From NCBI GenBank assembly GCA_018175275.1, contig GCA_018175275.1_4531.1: a DNA stretch of 64,000 bases; one strand, given 5' to 3'. This DNA is from a phage. Each line of letters begins with the position of its first letter. Position 1 is the stretch's first letter. The notes beneath the pieces were generated by a model. That model was not told the DNA's origin and did no database searches. It was given only the letters and a program-made list of their open reading frames with translations. This document shows positions 9,489 through 25,196 of the stretch, piece after piece. The translations under genes were made by a program, and so were the position numbers.

Positions 9489-9567
9489 TGGAGGCGGGAA
9501 TTGGATTTGAACCAATGATCTCCAGCATATGAAACTGGCGAGGACGACCAGACTCCTCTATCCCGCT
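9489..9567 (-). tRNA. tRNA-Met(CAT): tRNA-Met/Ile2 (CAT)
   Basis: acceptor AGCGGGA/TCCCGCC (1:72 mismatch), D-stem GAGG/CCTC, anticodon loop TT-CAT-AT, T-arm ATTGG-TTCAAAT-CCAAT, CCA encoded. Confidence 0.5.
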
Positions 9568-9645: not shown

Positions 9646-9719
9646 TGGTTGTTTCGACAAGAATCGAACTTGTATCTCACGATTATCAGTCGTGGGTTCT
9701 ACCATTGAACTACGAAACA
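9646..9719 (-). tRNA. tRNA-Ile(GAT): tRNA-Ile (GAT)
   Basis: acceptor TGTTTCG/CGAAACA, D-stem GTTC/GAAC, anticodon stem CACGA/TCGTG with loop CT-GAT-AA, T-arm ACAAG-TTCGATT-CTTGT, CCA encoded. Confidence 0.7.
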
Positions 9720-11861: not shown

Positions 11862-11936
11862 TGGTGGCCCTGGCTGGTTTCGATCCAGCTACCTATCGGT
11901 TATGAGCCGACAGCTCTCCCATTGAGCTACAGGGCC
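11862..11936 (-). tRNA. tRNA-Met(CAT): tRNA-Met or Ile2 (CAT)
   Basis: perfect acceptor GGCCCTG/CAGGGCC, D-stem GCTC/GAGC, anticodon stem GTCGG/CCGAT with loop CT-CAT-AA, T-arm GCTGG-ATCGAAA-CCAGC, CCA encoded; acceptor resembles E. coli tRNA-Ile2. Confidence 0.65.
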
Positions 11937-14833: not shown

Positions 14834-15012
14834 TTTTGCTCTATTCCGGTAAGGCAAAATACATGCAAGGTGTTAAACGCGTAGAGGTTACTAGGACAGT
14901 AACAATAGGGAAATCTTTTATCGTTTATTGTTTCCTTGTTAATGGGAAGGAGTATGCTGTAGCAAAGACCTTGGTTGATAATGGTAAAACTTGGAAAGTG
15001 GAGGCACTATGA
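14830..15012 (+). CDS. hypothetical small protein
   Basis: 60-aa ORF in operon-like packing. Confidence 0.3.
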   Translation: MILLYSGKAKYMQGVKRVEVTRTVTIGKSFIVYCFLVNGKEYAVAKTLVDNGKTWKVEAL

Positions 15013-15206
15013 TCACTGTAGCTGGGTGGGTGGTATTGGCAACACTTAATGGGAATGTTACTGTGGAGACTAAAACCATCTTCAAAGCACCAGAAGATTG
15101 CTATAACTCCTTGGTAACTTGGCCTCGTGATGAGGATGATAAGGCAGAGTATCAGTGTTTTTACATTGAGGGTAAGCCTGTAGAATTTGAGGTGAGGGTG
15201 AAATGA
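14991..15206 (+). CDS. hypothetical small protein
   Basis: 71-aa ORF. Confidence 0.3.
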   Translation: MESGGTMITVAGWVVLATLNGNVTVETKTIFKAPEDCYNSLVTWPRDEDDKAEYQCFYIEGKPVEFEVRVK

Positions 15207-15688
15207 AAATAAAAATTACTAAAGCACATGTAGATAACCCACAATTCTTTTCTTTGAATACAAGCTACGATATTAAAAACGGAGATGAGTTTGATGTTGT
15301 TGATATTGTAACAGATTCCGATGGCGTGGATTTTGGATATATGATTGTTCCTCCTTGTGGCGGTAGTCCTATTGTTGTATTGCGTGACGAAGCTGTAGAA
15401 GTGAGTTATGATGAATCCCAATACGACAGTCCATATATGACAGAGTGGATCGTGGCTGTAGATGTTGGAGGTATGGTTTCTGTACTGAAAGCTCCAAATC
15501 TCCACCCTGGTTTTACAGAGAACGGTAAGACAGCTTTGGATTATGGGTTGCCAGAAGATGTTGAGAATACACCGCCAGGTATGTACCGTTGGATTTGCTC
15601 TTTCCATGAAGAGAAGGATTGGGAATCAGGGCTTGTGGAGGATTGGCATTTTGAAGTGGAGAGTTCTTTTTTAATCATGCCTGCTTAG
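15203..15688 (+). CDS. hypothetical protein
   Basis: 161-aa ORF. Confidence 0.4.
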   Translation: MKIKITKAHVDNPQFFSLNTSYDIKNGDEFDVVDIVTDSDGVDFGYMIVPPCGGSPIVVLRDEAVEVSYDESQYDSPYMTEWIVAVDVGGMVSVLKAPNLHPGFTENGKTALDYGLPEDVENTPPGMYRWICSFHEEKDWESGLVEDWHFEVESSFLIMPA

Positions 15689-20572: not shown

Positions 20573-21298
20573 ATGATCGAGAATTTTTTTAAAGATATTA
20601 AATTCGATACTGAATTTTTCAAAAATGCAGCAAAGCACGTGATTGATTGGAATGCTAAAGCGCGAGGTGGTGAACAACCTGAATTTACTCAAGAGCTATT
20701 TATGTCCCAAATCGGGTTCGTTCGTGAAGAACTTAAAGAGTATGAAACAGCCGCGAAAGTAAACGATCATGTAGAACTCTTGGACGCAGCAGCAGATATT
20801 TTTGTAGTATCCAGTTATCTGACTTACATGTTCTTTGGTGAAGAACATACGATGAATTTCTTGGACTATACTGTAGGTGATGTTTTTACTCCGACTGTGT
20901 ATACTGACTTTGATGCTTTGGAACAAACATTTACAGAGCCAGTTCAAATGGCACTAATGGCTGCTGGTATTATGCGTATGTCTCGTGACACTCTCATTCG
21001 TTCAAAATATCCAGAAAAGAAAATTATTAAAGAAGTATTGAAAAGTAACGATTCCAAGTATCCAACTAAACAACAGTTGCTGAAAACTTGGAAAACTTCA
21101 GATATCGATTCAGCCATTGCACAAGAATGCACTGCAATTGAAGAACGAAACGCCAATCGTCCAGAAGGAGCATACACGGGTGTTCATGCTGTTTATAATG
21201 AAAAACAGAAAGTGTATGTGTTCTTTGATGATAAAGGTAAGATCATGAAGTGGTCAGGTTTCATTAAACCCAACATTGCAGCTATTATCAAAAAATGA
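20573..21298 (+). CDS. putative MazG-like nucleotide pyrophosphohydrolase
   Basis: 241 aa; REELKEYETAAKVNDHVELLDAAADIFVV resembles the MazG EExxE...D helix pair; weak call. Confidence 0.35.
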   Translation: MIENFFKDIKFDTEFFKNAAKHVIDWNAKARGGEQPEFTQELFMSQIGFVREELKEYETAAKVNDHVELLDAAADIFVVSSYLTYMFFGEEHTMNFLDYTVGDVFTPTVYTDFDALEQTFTEPVQMALMAAGIMRMSRDTLIRSKYPEKKIIKEVLKSNDSKYPTKQQLLKTWKTSDIDSAIAQECTAIEERNANRPEGAYTGVHAVYNEKQKVYVFFDDKGKIMKWSGFIKPNIAAIIKK

Positions 21299-21936
21299 TA
21301 GGTTCAACAAAGGGAGATTTTAGAATCTCCCGTCTTTCTGAAACCAAGATTGACAATCAAACTACTTTTGTATGTTTATGCTTGGTATGCCAAAAAGAAA
21401 GTTTAAGAACATTGTCCAGTCTGAAAAGATCAAAGAGTCCGAAATGCATGTATTGTAGTAAGGGCGATGGCCTATCTAATAAGGAACGATATACTTACGA
21501 AAGTTATCGTAATATGCTACAAAGGTGTTATAATGAAAATTGTGAGCACTATGATAGATACGGTGGACGAGGAATTACTGTTTGTGATGATTGGAAGAAA
21601 TCATTTAACACTTTCTTGAAAGACATGGGTAAGCGACCTAAAAACCATAGTTTAGATCGTGTAAATGTTGATCTTGGTTACAGTAAAGAGAATTGCAGAT
21701 GGACAACACAAAGTGAACAGATTCGAAACAGAGGTAAAACAAAAAGCAAGTATTCAAATTTTAGGGGAGTCTCCTATGACAAAGCTAAAAATAAATGGCT
21801 GGCTTTTATTTGTTTCGATAAGAAAACAAAATATTTAGGAAGATATACTACAGAGTTGGAAGCGGCTGAAGCTTACAATCTCGAAGCATTAGAGTTAGGT
21901 ATGTCTAACTATTTTTTAAATACCCGTTTTAAATAG
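21295..21936 (+). CDS. HNH homing endonuclease with AP2-type DNA-binding domain
   Basis: 213 aa; DRVNVDLGYSKENCRWTTQSEQIRN (HNH-like) plus FRGVSYDKAKNKWLAFI...GRYTTELEAAEAYN (AP2-like). Confidence 0.55.
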   Translation: MIGSTKGDFRISRLSETKIDNQTTFVCLCLVCQKESLRTLSSLKRSKSPKCMYCSKGDGLSNKERYTYESYRNMLQRCYNENCEHYDRYGGRGITVCDDWKKSFNTFLKDMGKRPKNHSLDRVNVDLGYSKENCRWTTQSEQIRNRGKTKSKYSNFRGVSYDKAKNKWLAFICFDKKTKYLGRYTTELEAAEAYNLEALELGMSNYFLNTRFK

Positions 21937-21944
21937 GAGGAAAC

Positions 21945-22823
21945 ATGTTTGTAAAATCTTTTAAATCCGCTCTGCCTATGGTTGTTGGTGACAATGCTTC
22001 TGTAGCATCCCTTAACAGCATTACAGATATTCCTCTGGAATTTGTAACAGCAGAAGGCTCCCAGTCACACACTATCGGTCTTGTTCGTTTCGAAGATGAC
22101 TCTAAATTTGTAAAAGAGTTTTCAGATCTTGAACTGCTTAATGTAGGTCAATCTGTGAAGAAGGTAGATAAAAAGAAAGTTAAACGTATTCTGAATGAAC
22201 GTCTAGAAGAAATGCGTCAGGACATGGAGAGCGAAGGTAAAGAGTTTTATGTCGATAAAGAAGTAGTCAAAGCAATGAAAGAAGATATTGAATTTGCACT
22301 ATTGCCTGAAACAGAACCTGAAGATTTCTTTAACTATGTTGTCTTGGATAAAACTACGAATCTTCTTTATGTTCTTAATGGAAGTAAAAAGGTTGCAGAA
22401 GAGATTACTTCTTTCCTCCGTTCCGTTCTGGGGACTTTCCCTTCGGTAGGTTTTAGTGTGCACGAAGAAGCTATTGTAAAAGGTTTTGGTGAATTGCTGG
22501 AGAATCACGAAGCAGATCGTATTACTCTCGGAAATTATATCAAAATGGAGGATAGCGAGGGCGTTGTTGTTTGGAGTAAAGAATCCCTATACGAGTCTAA
22601 AGCTGTCGAACTAAAAGAAGATGGTAAAGATGTTGTTGCAATCGGTCTTGAATATGACGGTGTTGTAGATTTTGTAGTGGATAAAGAGTTTAAACTTTCT
22701 AAACTACGTTTTCCGAAATATTTTGCAGACGAAGAAGGTAGTATTGAAGCTTCAGTCCTTCTGTGCTTCAATGAGATTCGAGGTCTGATGGAAGATTTAA
22801 CCAAAGCAACAATCCTTAAATAA
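21945..22823 (+). CDS. putative RdgC-like recombination-associated protein
   Basis: 292 aa; GVVVWSKESLYESKAVELKEDGKDVVAIGLEYDGVVDFVVDKEFKLSKLRF aligns by eye with RdgC GGVIRAKKQDL...KVVTKLALDW...DGSLKRLKF. Confidence 0.4.
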   Translation: MFVKSFKSALPMVVGDNASVASLNSITDIPLEFVTAEGSQSHTIGLVRFEDDSKFVKEFSDLELLNVGQSVKKVDKKKVKRILNERLEEMRQDMESEGKEFYVDKEVVKAMKEDIEFALLPETEPEDFFNYVVLDKTTNLLYVLNGSKKVAEEITSFLRSVLGTFPSVGFSVHEEAIVKGFGELLENHEADRITLGNYIKMEDSEGVVVWSKESLYESKAVELKEDGKDVVAIGLEYDGVVDFVVDKEFKLSKLRFPKYFADEEGSIEASVLLCFNEIRGLMEDLTKATILK

Positions 22824-22827
22824 GTTC

Positions 22828-22856
22828 TTGACTTGCGGGATTAGTTATGATATTAT
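22828..22856 (+). promoter_or_regulatory. sigma70-like promoter (TTGACT-N17-TATTAT)
   Basis: -35 TTGACT 22828-22833, -10 TATTAT 22851-22856. Confidence 0.4.
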
Positions 22857-22889
22857 GCCTACCTACCTACTTAATGAGGTAGGCTTTTT
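22857..22889 (+). terminator. hairpin plus T-run (terminator or leader attenuator)
   Basis: stem GCCTACCT/AGGTAGGC with 12-nt loop followed by TTTTT; immediately after the promoter -10 and before the RBS of the next gene. Confidence 0.4.
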
Positions 22890-22899
22890 AGGAGGCGTT

Positions 22900-23109
22900 A
22901 TGAAAAAGATTCTGACAGTCGTTCTTTTAGCTTTTAGTTTCACAGTAGCAGCAGGTCAAATTACTTTAATCTTGTCTGATTCTGAAGTTAATGGCAACAC
23001 AAAATATTGCTACTATTCTAACGCTAACCAAGATGAAGTTATAGCAATCCCGAAAAGTCGTCAATGTCCGTATACTAAAACATTCTCAACAGAGGATGAC
23101 GATGAATAA
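22900..23109 (+). CDS. small secreted protein (signal peptide)
   Basis: about 69 aa from ATG 22900 with TAGGAGG RBS; MKKILTVVLLAFSFTVAAG signal-like N-terminus. Confidence 0.45.
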   Translation: MKKILTVVLLAFSFTVAAGQITLILSDSEVNGNTKYCYYSNANQDEVIAIPKSRQCPYTKTFSTEDDDE

Positions 23110-23121
23110 TTAGGGGGAAAT

Positions 23122-24240
23122 ATTAGCGGTTATATTTTAATTAAACCTGAAGATCTTCATTTATATGTCAACGAAGAAACAATAGCTGCAATTGATTATG
23201 ATCAGATCGCTTTCCAAGCAGCGTCTGCATTAGAGAAAAGAACAATCATTGCGAAGCACATCCCTTCAGGTGCTCAAAAGGAATTTAAAAATAAGACAGA
23301 GTTTTGGGGTAAAAGCAAGACTAAAATTGGAGGTTGGCTAGGAGACACAAATGCAGAAAGAGCCTCCAAAAACAAACGTCCCTTCACAAAGGAAGAGTTC
23401 GAAATTATTGATAAGCAATACCCGCCAGAAGATATCGGACACACCTTCCAAGCAGCTAAAACAAAAGTCTTAGGTATTCTAAAACATCTACGTTTAGAAA
23501 AATATTGCGGAGTTATTGGCGTAGGAAAAACTTTCAGACACGCCTTCAAAATGCCTGTAGAATATAAATCTGAACGATTAGATATCAAACCACTTCAGCT
23601 TTCAGAAACCAAAGATTATCTTGTGGAGTTTCACAATGGTGATGTTGTTACTGTAATAGAAGCTGATGATGAGTTAGAGAAGTATGGTTTCCAAGGTTAT
23701 AAAGATTATAAAAGGACGGGTAAATTTTCTTATATCGTAGTGTCTATAGATAAAGATAGTTTACATACTCCTAGTATCCTTTTTAATTTCTACAAAGAGG
23801 ATGGAGTATTTAAAAATCCAGATATAATTCTTATTGACGAGTCTATTGGCGATATATGGATCGTAGATAAAGGTAAAAAGAAAGAAGTTAAAGGTTGGGG
23901 CAGTTACTGGTTAGCATATCAGATGCTAATGGGAGATAAAACAGATAGTATCCGACCTTATCAAGATTTTGATATTAAGTTCGGAGATATTACTTGTTTT
24001 AATCTTCTTTCAGCTTGTAAAACTCAAGCAGAACTTTTCCAAACAGTTAAAGATACTTACTACTCATGGTTCCCAGATGGTGTTAATTTTACTTCTTGGG
24101 ATGGAGAAGAAGTCCATATGACAACAGATGAATGGATAGAAACAATTTTCCAGTTGGTATACATGAAACGCTGGGATAATGACGATACAACATTTGAGAG
24201 TATGCTTCAGTCATACATCTCGCAACAGGAGGCAGAGTGA
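23122..24240 (+). CDS. putative 5'-3' exonuclease / RNase H (T4 rnh-like), no canonical start codon
   Basis: frame open from 23110 with no in-frame ATG/GTG/TTG until 23551; region before 23551 encodes IAAIDYDQIAFQAASAL resembling T4 RNase H ICLIDFSQIALSTAL; AGGGGG at 23112-23117 precedes ATT 23122. Confidence 0.4.
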   Translation: MSGYILIKPEDLHLYVNEETIAAIDYDQIAFQAASALEKRTIIAKHIPSGAQKEFKNKTEFWGKSKTKIGGWLGDTNAERASKNKRPFTKEEFEIIDKQYPPEDIGHTFQAAKTKVLGILKHLRLEKYCGVIGVGKTFRHAFKMPVEYKSERLDIKPLQLSETKDYLVEFHNGDVVTVIEADDELEKYGFQGYKDYKRTGKFSYIVVSIDKDSLHTPSILFNFYKEDGVFKNPDIILIDESIGDIWIVDKGKKKEVKGWGSYWLAYQMLMGDKTDSIRPYQDFDIKFGDITCFNLLSACKTQAELFQTVKDTYYSWFPDGVNFTSWDGEEVHMTTDEWIETIFQLVYMKRWDNDDTTFESMLQSYISQQEAE

Positions 24241-25196
24241 GCAGATTAACAGAAGAGCAGAAAGCAGATATCCTTAGTATGAGTGCAGAGGGTATGTCTT
24301 CTCGCAATATTGCAGCAATTGTTTTAGGTAGTCCAACAAGAAAAAGCACAGTGAACGATTTCCTTGCACGATTCGGAGCAAGTAAACAAGAGCCAGTTAA
24401 AAAGAAACAACCAGTTATTAAAATTATTGATGTTGAAACTGCACCAGAGATTGCATATACTTTCCGTCGATTCAAAGCCTTCATTTCTCCAGATCAAGTA
24501 ATTCGTAGGGGTTATTTGTTATCTTACTCTTCTGCCGACCTGCATACTGGTGAAGTGGAAGGTAAGAATTTGTCTTCTTATCCTCTTTTTGATATTGATC
24601 ATACAGATGATTGGGAGCTTTGCCAAGATCTTTGGAACCTTCTGAATGAGGCAGATGTAGTTGTGGCACACAACGGGTATAAGTTTGACCGTGCATACAT
24701 TAACCAACGATTTGCATATCACGATATGGCTCCTCCTTCTAATTATGTAGTTGTTGATACATTGAAGGCAGCTAAGAAACAATTTGCACTTCCTTCCAAC
24801 TCCCTTAAAGAAATGGGAGCATATTTCGAAACAGAAAGTGAAAAACTGGATAACGAGGGGTTCCCTTTATGGAAAGCATGTTGTGAAGGTGATCGTGATG
24901 CTTTTGAACGTATGCAGATTTACAATGATGGTGATGTTGTTTCACTCCGTGATTTGTATATGAAAATCCTTCCGTGGATTCCACAGCATCCTAACTTATC
25001 CGCTTATTACCCAGATGAGAAGGTCCGTTGTTCTCGTTGTGGCAGTGATCACGTTCACGTTGTTACTGGTAAACAATACCACACTGCGGTAAGTTCTTTC
25101 GATATCATTCGTTGTGAATCTTGCGGCGGTTTGTCACGTAGTAGAGCAAACACCAGATCCAAGGATAAACGAGCAGCAACTATCATTGGAATCTAA
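24237..25196 (+). CDS. putative DnaQ-like 3'-5' exonuclease with N-terminal HTH and C-terminal zinc ribbon
   Basis: 319 aa; Exo I-like IIDVETAP, Exo II-like VVAHNGYKFDRAYI; N-terminal HTH-like segment; C-terminal CSRCGS...CESCGG. Confidence 0.4.
   Translation: MSRLTEEQKADILSMSAEGMSSRNIAAIVLGSPTRKSTVNDFLARFGASKQEPVKKKQPVIKIIDVETAPEIAYTFRRFKAFISPDQVIRRGYLLSYSSADLHTGEVEGKNLSSYPLFDIDHTDDWELCQDLWNLLNEADVVVAHNGYKFDRAYINQRFAYHDMAPPSNYVVVDTLKAAKKQFALPSNSLKEMGAYFETESEKLDNEGFPLWKACCEGDRDAFERMQIYNDGDVVSLRDLYMKILPWIPQHPNLSAYYPDEKVRCSRCGSDHVHVVTGKQYHTAVSSFDIIRCESCGGLSRSRANTRSKDKRAATIIGI

Follow-up and report, generated by a model that had tools for sequence, protein, structure and literature searches.

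The window analysed here is a 64,000 nt stretch of phage DNA (contig GCA_018175275.1_4531.1 of GenBank assembly GCA_018175275.1), which originates from a phAPEC8-like E. coli myophage (Phapecoctavirus, Stephanstirmvirinae). Its replication and recombination module contains, between the genes for an RdgC-like protein and a DnaQ-like 3′-5′ exonuclease, a gene for a predicted flap endonuclease/5′-3′ exonuclease (FEN) of the T4 RNase H/T5 D15 type, which lacks a canonical start codon and for which we propose initiation at an ATT codon (Table 1). Following the in-frame stop codon TAA at 23107–23109, the frame is open from 23110 to the TGA at 24238–24240, and a codon-by-codon check confirmed an earlier reading of this DNA from its letters alone (the sequence-only reading), according to which 147 codons pass before the first in-frame ATG, GTG or TTG, the ATG at 23551. 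These three codons represent 5.7% of the in-frame codons in the 16 long genes of the window, and at this frequency a run of 143–147 codons free of all three has a probability of approximately 2e-4. Among all stop-to-stop open reading frames (ORFs) of ≥90 codons in the window, the nuclease ORF has by far the largest start offset, with the next-largest offsets being 52–68 codons and mostly found in ORFs overlapped by longer ORFs.

The 143 codons upstream of the ATG at 23551 (Met144 when counted from the ATT) are coding. When the 372-residue translation from the ATT was used as tblastn query, it matched 1233 phage records, of which 901 covered ≥80% of the query including the N-terminus. Codon alignments of codons 2–143 with 16 relatives showed that differences were mostly at third codon positions (16/9/65 for the three positions in the locus labelled L026, 42/29/83 in phage phi92; L numbers denote loci throughout), that synonymous changes outnumber non-synonymous changes in most of the closer relatives, and that codons 144–372 display the same pattern. 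The exonuclease family PHROG 107 matched residues 10–367 (E 1e-55), and also matched the N-terminal 143 residues on their own (E 5e-7). Conserved coding sequence thus reaches beyond the first canonical start, with no such start present all the way back to the in-frame stop.

The proposed start codon is preceded by a Shine-Dalgarno (SD) sequence at the spacing preferred in this window. We surveyed every GGAGG or GGGGG in the window with a canonical start 2–10 nt further on that opens an ORF of ≥60 codons, and a spacer of 4 nt, as found before the ATT at 23122, was the mode (31 of the 57 SD-start pairs). A scan of the window for further SD sequences followed by near-cognate codons gave no other such start, as in every other candidate the very next codon is a canonical start, leaving ATT 23122 as the sole candidate where this is not the case. 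RNA folding around the start detected no significant structure (z −0.56), and nothing indicating a structured regulatory element. Since the N-terminus is coding, no canonical start is available, the SD geometry is the preferred one and the near-cognate class of the codon is conserved in relatives, we infer that translation very probably begins at ATT 23122.

Table 1. Features of the nuclease locus and its surroundings; positions refer to the window, except for the last three rows, which refer to other records
Feature	Position	Strand	Details
Full-length flap endonuclease/5′-3′ exonuclease gene (T4 RNase H/T5 D15 type; predicted)	23122..24240	+	372 codons + TGA
SD core GGGGG	23113..23117	+	AGGGGG from 23112; relatives have GGAGG or GGGGG
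Proposed near-cognate initiation codon ATT	23122..23124	+	4-nt spacer AAAT after GGGGG
Asp25 codon	23194..23196	+	Invariant in 44 homologues; lost from every annotated truncated product
ATG of Met144	23551..23553	+	Start in inspected Phapecoctavirus annotations; no SD before it (gacacgccttcaaa-ATG)
RdgC-like gene	21945-22823		PF04381
Sigma-70-like promoter	22828..22856	+	TTGACT, 17 nt, TG-TATTAT; 10/12 consensus matches, extended -10 TG; consensus match only
Terminator-like hairpin with T-run	22862..22889	+	Between promoter and ribosome binding site (RBS) of the small gene
Upstream small gene, 69 aa	22900..23109	+	PHROG 4641, E 7e-27; RBS AGGAGG-CGTT-ATG
DnaQ-like 3′-5′ exonuclease gene	24237..25196	+	PF13482, E 9e-10; RBS AGGAGG-CAGA-GTG
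Small 'hypothetical protein' coding sequence (CDS) inside nuclease N-terminal part	L002 2048-2170		phAPEC8, G377_gp266
Small 'hypothetical protein' CDS inside nuclease N-terminal part	L045 646-738		WPEC4
Small 'hypothetical protein' CDS inside nuclease N-terminal part	L045 748-870		WPEC4

A predicted flap nuclease fold

Sequence searches with the 372-residue protein did not assign it to a family in Pfam or NCBIfam, with no Pfam match at E ≤0.01 and the gathering threshold not reached, and neither phmmer nor a profile of 44 sequences found a match among PDB sequences. Within the 44 homologues, 15 matched PF02739 (5′-3′ exonuclease N-terminal domain) and one matched PF01367 at E ≤0.01, and several distant homologues carry a precomputed PF02739 assignment. 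Because the Pfam, NCBIfam and PDB searches gave nothing for the protein itself, its family assignment was based on PHROGs, a predicted structure, and an hhalign comparison with the rnh gene product of T4. An AlphaFold2 model built from the 44 homologues (mean pLDDT, the predicted local distance difference test score, 95.9; predicted template modelling score 0.89) displays a PIN-like N-terminal nuclease domain and a helical (H3TH) domain, as required for the FEN family, with residues 1–143 integral to a single globular domain. Structural matches to the model were a plastid 5′-3′ exonuclease (9l55, score 16.8), the Mycobacterium smegmatis FEN (15.0), E. coli ExoIX (14.6), T5 exonuclease (14.4) and T4 RNase H (1tfr, 13.8), and Foldseek agreed with these FEN matches. 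We consider it highly probable that 23122–24240 encodes a full-length 372-residue FEN of the bacterial/phage family begun at the ATT. Enzymes of this family such as T4 RNase H and T5 D15 presumably strip RNA primers and flaps during phage DNA replication.

Twelve residues are invariant in the 44 homologues (D25, R139, Y148, K149, E180, D182, D183, D210, K211, D212, D272 and D275), and two of these, D25 and R139, are located upstream of Met144; initiation at ATG 23551 would thus give a product missing part of the predicted active site, as well as the first strands and helices. The claim in the sequence-only reading that the N-terminus must be translated is thus backed by coding-type conservation, by the single domain with predicted FEN fold, and by the invariant Asp25. 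The same reading had described a close resemblance to T4 RNase H, which held at the level of fold and motifs and did not hold at the level of sequence, where phmmer, the PDB profile search and Pfam detected nothing. In the hhalign alignment with T4 rnh the probability was only 17.5% (E 0.0014), and the catalytic motifs were nonetheless aligned: FRH..YK pairs with T4 WRR..YYKK (R139, Y148 and K149 versus R79, Y86 and K87), EADD with EADD (T4 D132), DKD with DGD (D155 and D157), and GDKTD with GDKKD (D197 and D200). This alignment does not extend into the segment around the first Asp, where the correspondence was made by eye: the peptide IAAIDYDQIAFQAASAL is encoded at 23182–23232, the N-terminus of T4 RNase H reads GICLIDFSQIALSTAL, and the latter matches IAAIDYDQIAFQAAS such that D25 is opposite T4 D19 (IAAID-YDQIA versus ICLID-FSQIA).

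The R..YK, EADD, DKD and GDxTD motifs of the phage nuclease thus align with T4 RNase H, along with the ID.xQIA motif matched by eye, but the protein has only 11–21% identity to T4 RNase H and T5 D15 and is approximately 70–100 residues longer, with an insertion of about 60 residues between the first Asp and R..YK. The position of the T4 metal ligand Asp71 is taken by a nearly invariant glycine, Gly133 (23518–23520), while a second conserved aspartate, Asp27 (23200–23202), follows Asp25 (DYD). This sets the family apart from T4 and T5, and the architecture of its metal site may differ from theirs. A further difference is that the T4 rnh CDS begins with Met in both its record and its translation.

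Start codons in relatives and alternative explanations

Start regions of related genes were collected from GenBank phages, IMG/VR, Logan/ENA assemblies and metagenome contigs, and a scan of IMG/VR with a degenerate DNA pattern only re-found loci that had already been collected. Among the 30 distinct start contexts obtained, with protein identities from 100% down to ~50%, the codon at the homologous position is ATT in 13, ATC in nine, ATA in six and CTG in two, and is not ATG, GTG or TTG in any of the 30. It is always located 4–5 nt past GGAGG or GGGGG (or the weaker TAGGA in L063), and is followed by a conserved peptide (I-S/G-G-Y/F...). The option of the sequence-only reading that translation starts at ATT 23122 behind AGGGGG is thus supported by both the modal SD spacing and the presence of a near-cognate codon at the homologous site in relatives. 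The start context of phAPEC8 has the ATT and differs from the window in one upstream base, and L041 and L042 share an identical called protein of 343 residues, with CTG in the former and ATT in the latter at this position. The ATC of L014, L049 and L051 comes immediately after an in-frame TAA, which rules out in-frame translation of anything upstream. None of 17 tabulated lineages has a canonical start between the upstream stop and the near-cognate codon; downstream, the first canonical in-frame codon in these lineages varies in position from residue 6 to residue 144, and is never accompanied by an SD sequence.

Outside this set, canonical starts are found at or near the same point in the gene. 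The nearest outside lineage, L040 (47% identity), has GGAGG-ATAG-TTG-AGT at the same position, and in more distant orthologues of 350–380 residues (Vequintavirinae, PAK_P-like phages, NoPa and others) an ATG, TTG or GTG lies at the equivalent point or close to it; the KaOmega (ATG) and NHEP1 (TTG) starts coincide with the homologous position or are a few residues from it. Orthologues in Vequintavirinae (rV5-like NHEP1, KaOmega and SSBI34), PAK_P5, NoPa and the Felix O1-like tootiki belong to the same family at 25–47% identity and the same length class, and likewise start at the homologous N-terminus, or a few residues from it, behind a GGAGG-type SD, but differ in using ATG, TTG or GTG and in being annotated at full length. 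Orthologues therefore do not start at the equivalent of ATG 23551, and are full-length proteins of 343–380 aa, including those of Felix O1-like phages. Matches of Felix O1-like proteins to residues 147–359 were considered as natural short forms and rejected, as the annotated gene encodes 346 aa with a diverged N-terminus.

The near-cognate lineages cluster in a neighbour-joining tree, in which L040 is nested next to a subgroup with CTG and ATA, and parsimony indicated approximately 9–10 changes of start codon within the near-cognate clade, none of which were to ATG or GTG. The third base of the start codon is repeatedly T, C or A and never G, with ATG being one step away and the norm for the other genes of these phages, which suggests selection for a weak start; on this sequence pattern we lean towards the view that the weakness of the start is maintained by selection.

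Besides the ATT, the sequence-only reading had offered two other options, a sequence error and read-through or recoding out of the small gene for a secreted protein upstream, and both were excluded by the comparison with relatives. The small gene is in the same frame as the nuclease with a single TAA (23107) between them, as had been claimed, and a 444 aa database protein (P0005) looks like a fusion of the kind that read-through or frameshifting would generate. However, the window and L013 share this frame relation whereas phi92, Antha and L010 do not, and L014, L015 and L016 have two in-frame stops between the genes. The gene upstream also changes, encoding a methyltransferase in L034 and being of the HNH type in L041, and in L031 a distance of ~120 nt separates its end from the nuclease start. 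Neither a fixed frame relation nor a single conserved recoding site was thus found, since frame, stops and upstream gene vary by lineage, and the fusion of a signal peptide to a replication nuclease would be functionally senseless, making read-through highly improbable. The P0005 'fusion' itself was rejected, as its DNA (L025, on a contig of Logan SRR30397360) contains a TAG which the gene caller had translated as Gln, and translation of the locus does not give the query; this artefact shows that gene calls made with alternative codes in that collection should be treated with care. A sequencing or assembly error masking an ordinary ATG or GTG is even harder to credit, given that the start region is identical in the independent genomes of ESCO25, iGC_PHA_EC001 and EF1-1 and in two metagenome contigs, that 65 GenBank phage records match the region 22800–24300 at ≥95% identity and 44 at ≥99% (all 65 being phAPEC8-like myophages of E. 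coli and relatives), and that the ~30 diverged contexts all lack a canonical start. The true product could also be the 229 residues from ATG 23551, with the upstream 440 bp being non-coding, a pseudogene remnant or a separate gene: all six Phapecoctavirus GenBank records inspected (ESCO25, phAPEC8, iGC_PHA_EC001, EF1-1, Schickermooser and WPEC4) start the CDS at this ATG, and Met144 is conserved in several relatives. This explanation has very little chance of being correct, as ATG 23551 has no SD, the upstream segment shows a coding substitution pattern, is needed for the predicted single-domain fold and holds the invariant Asp25 and Arg139, and all distant orthologues with canonical starts are of full length; the first canonical in-frame codon is at residue 79 in L016 and at residue 144 in L025, and thus does not give a consistent alternative.

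Two further explanations retain a near-cognate start. The codons ATT 23134 and ATT 23140 are both in frame and near the SD, but their spacers of 16 and 22 nt fall outside the 2–10 nt range (mode 4) of the window, and the canonical starts of sister and distant lineages align with 23122 to within a residue or so, and hence initiation at either of these is very unlikely. Another possibility, which is a variant of the preferred start at ATT 23122, is that this codon is used mainly through termination and reinitiation by ribosomes leaving the well-translated small gene, with this coupling, in place of de novo initiation directed by the SD, setting the level of expression. In most lineages the upstream stop is located 5–15 nt before the start or overlaps the SD (TAGGAGG), and the E. 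coli infC AUU is positioned 3 nt past the thrS stop, where about half of its initiation is re-initiation (PMC3592434). Against this, the called upstream gene in L031 ends ~120 nt before the start, a strong SD is kept throughout, consistent with de novo recruitment, and IF3 overexpression lowers re-initiation as well (PMC2268962), so that coupling would not bypass codon discrimination; reinitiation as the main route is thus possible, and we consider it doubtful.

Several points weigh against a nuclease of 372 residues started from ATT 23122 and kept on a weak start by selection. Initiation at ATT 23122 is a prediction from sequence, and the protein itself falls below the Pfam gathering threshold. 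In L026, L028, L029, L034 and L035 a TTG, GTG or ATG is present 6–16 codons downstream and before Asp25, and these codons are usable in principle, with none of them having an SD. The case for selection rests on the 0/30 canonical codons and the ~9 changes among related lineages, and is suggestive. Finally, the codons observed encode Ile and Leu, and the pattern alone could reflect a conserved hydrophobic residue. However, the frame closes 0–10 codons upstream without a start, CTG is the only Leu codon at this position apart from the TTG of the sister lineage L040, and the canonical starts of distant orthologues are at or near this point.

A possible role for the near-cognate start

In the mechanism which we propose, the 30S subunit would be placed by the GGGGG SD sequence 4 nt upstream of AUU 23122, where initiator fMet-tRNA would pair imperfectly with the codon, and the mature protein would begin with (f)Met-Ser-Gly-Tyr-Ile-Leu-Ile-Lys. 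The stop codon of the small gene (TAA 23107–23109) is located 12 nt before the ATT, and ribosomes ending there may assist by re-initiating. The near-cognate codon probably functions as a built-in attenuator holding the nuclease at a low level, and possibly makes its synthesis sensitive to initiation factor IF3, since IF3 discriminates against AUU, AUC, AUA and CUG, whose initiation rates are only a few percent of that of AUG. Small amounts of such a nuclease would suffice, and an excess of it may be harmful. Over-expression of T5 exonuclease has been reported to be toxic to E. coli.

The codons found in the nuclease relatives are exactly the set AUA, AUC, AUU and CUG designated 'the four near-cognates' in E. 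coli by Hecht et al. (bioRxiv 10.1101/063800), which start with Met at ~1–2% of the AUG level, or at 0.02–3% in other constructs, and for which the only confirmed natural cases in E. coli are infC and pcnB, both with AUU (10.1101/063800). In a reporter system AUU was six- to eight-fold below AUG (Osterman et al., PMC3592434), and at an infC-type junction, consisting of an upstream stop, 3 nt and AUU, re-initiation and de novo initiation contributed approximately equally (PMC3592434). Overproduction of IF3 lowers re-initiation (PMC2268962), and nutrient state and ppGpp affect non-AUG starts particularly strongly (PMC5499595). The nuclease start would be a further example of this known type of near-cognate initiation. 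It has in common with infC and pcnB the AUU behind a functional SD, with low output and IF3 sensitivity expected (10.1101/063800; PMC3592434), and with infC the stop codon of an upstream gene a few nucleotides before the AUU, but differs in being a phage gene in which the codon turns over between AUU, AUC, AUA and CUG. Nor is an autoregulatory logic apparent, given that the gene encodes a nuclease instead of an initiation factor.

We marginally favour the interpretation that a clade of large myophages of E. coli and other Enterobacteria (Stephanstirmvirinae and metagenomic kin) holds this gene on near-cognate codons behind a strong SD as a regulatory device. The likely reason for a weak start is either the low amount of nuclease required, or a link between its synthesis and IF3 availability or initiation fidelity during infection. 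If correct, this would represent natural and phylogenetically replicated control of dosage or timing encoded in the start codon of a virus, and would mean that near-cognate phage starts are systematically missed by gene callers. The approximately 30 natural variants, which include all four near-cognates at one constant RBS geometry, make a ready system for studying what keeps a gene on a weak start that responds to IF3, and for asking if the fidelity of initiation changes during phage infection, and comparing conserved 5′ extensions without canonical starts across relatives is a simple method for finding such phage genes.

The window also encodes tRNAs that might play a part in initiation at AUH codons, two of them with a CAT anticodon. 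One of these, a 79 nt tRNA at 9489–9567 on the minus strand, was read with an A1xC72 mismatch in its acceptor stem (AGCGGGA...TCCCGCC-T-CCA). A mismatch at 1:72 is a hallmark of the bacterial initiator tRNA, and this tRNA lacks the three G:C pairs of the initiator anticodon stem. A second CAT tRNA (11862–11936) presumably corresponds to tRNA-Ile2 of the lysidine type, reading AUA, as judged by its resemblance to the E. coli sequence, and a tRNA-Ile(GAT) is located at 9646–9719.

Annotation of the gene and its neighbourhood

Truncated annotation of this gene is not restricted to the Phapecoctavirus records. In the Justusliebigvirus phages phi92 and Antha the CDS starts on a GTG at codon 29, downstream of Asp25, and the phi92 record carries the note 'No RBS identified; weak Prodigal statistics'. 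The phAPEC8 and WPEC4 records have ORFs of 30–40 codons annotated in other frames in the resulting gap, and these small CDSs are very likely spurious. In a protein collection of 5.8 billion clusters the gene of the window is present only in its 229-residue form (P0019), and this collection does not contain a full-length entry at ≥90% identity, the best full-length-like match being at 86%. Function prediction, structure prediction or cloning from these records would be expected to yield an inactive fragment without the predicted first catalytic Asp. Our literature search found no description of an ATT-start nuclease or of its annotation issue. The present analysis adds a phylogenetically replicated pattern that points towards selection for weak initiation, and reveals that this gene is systematically misannotated in a well-sampled group of phages.

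The small gene preceding the nuclease encodes a protein with a hydrophobic N-terminus typical of a signal peptide, and its orthologue in phi92 is annotated with a signal peptide. Upstream of both the small gene and the nuclease gene is the sigma-70-like promoter listed in Table 1, followed by the terminator-like hairpin, and the same hairpin element is annotated as terminator in phage Schickermooser. Transcription from this promoter would start within the hairpin or immediately ahead of it, and the hairpin may therefore spare locally initiated transcripts while ending those arriving from the upstream rdgC gene. On the other side, the GTG start of the DnaQ-like gene overlaps the TGA stop of the nuclease gene (GTGA, 24237–24240), which suggests translational coupling of the two nucleases, and the weak ATT start might therefore also limit the coupled share of DnaQ-like gene translation.

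A 213-residue ORF at 21295–21936, directly upstream of the rdgC-like gene, has a sequence that looks like a homing endonuclease of the HNH/AP2 type, and relatives carry other insertions at comparable sites beside the nuclease gene, with HNH genes in KaOmega (L006) and in L041. The neighbourhood of the nuclease therefore seems prone to homing-endonuclease traffic. Elsewhere in the window, a gap of ~350 nt between plus-strand genes (14834–15190) has on the minus strand a 96-codon open frame (14925–15215) which is devoid of any ATG, GTG or TTG, and this gap may simply be an intergenic regulatory region.

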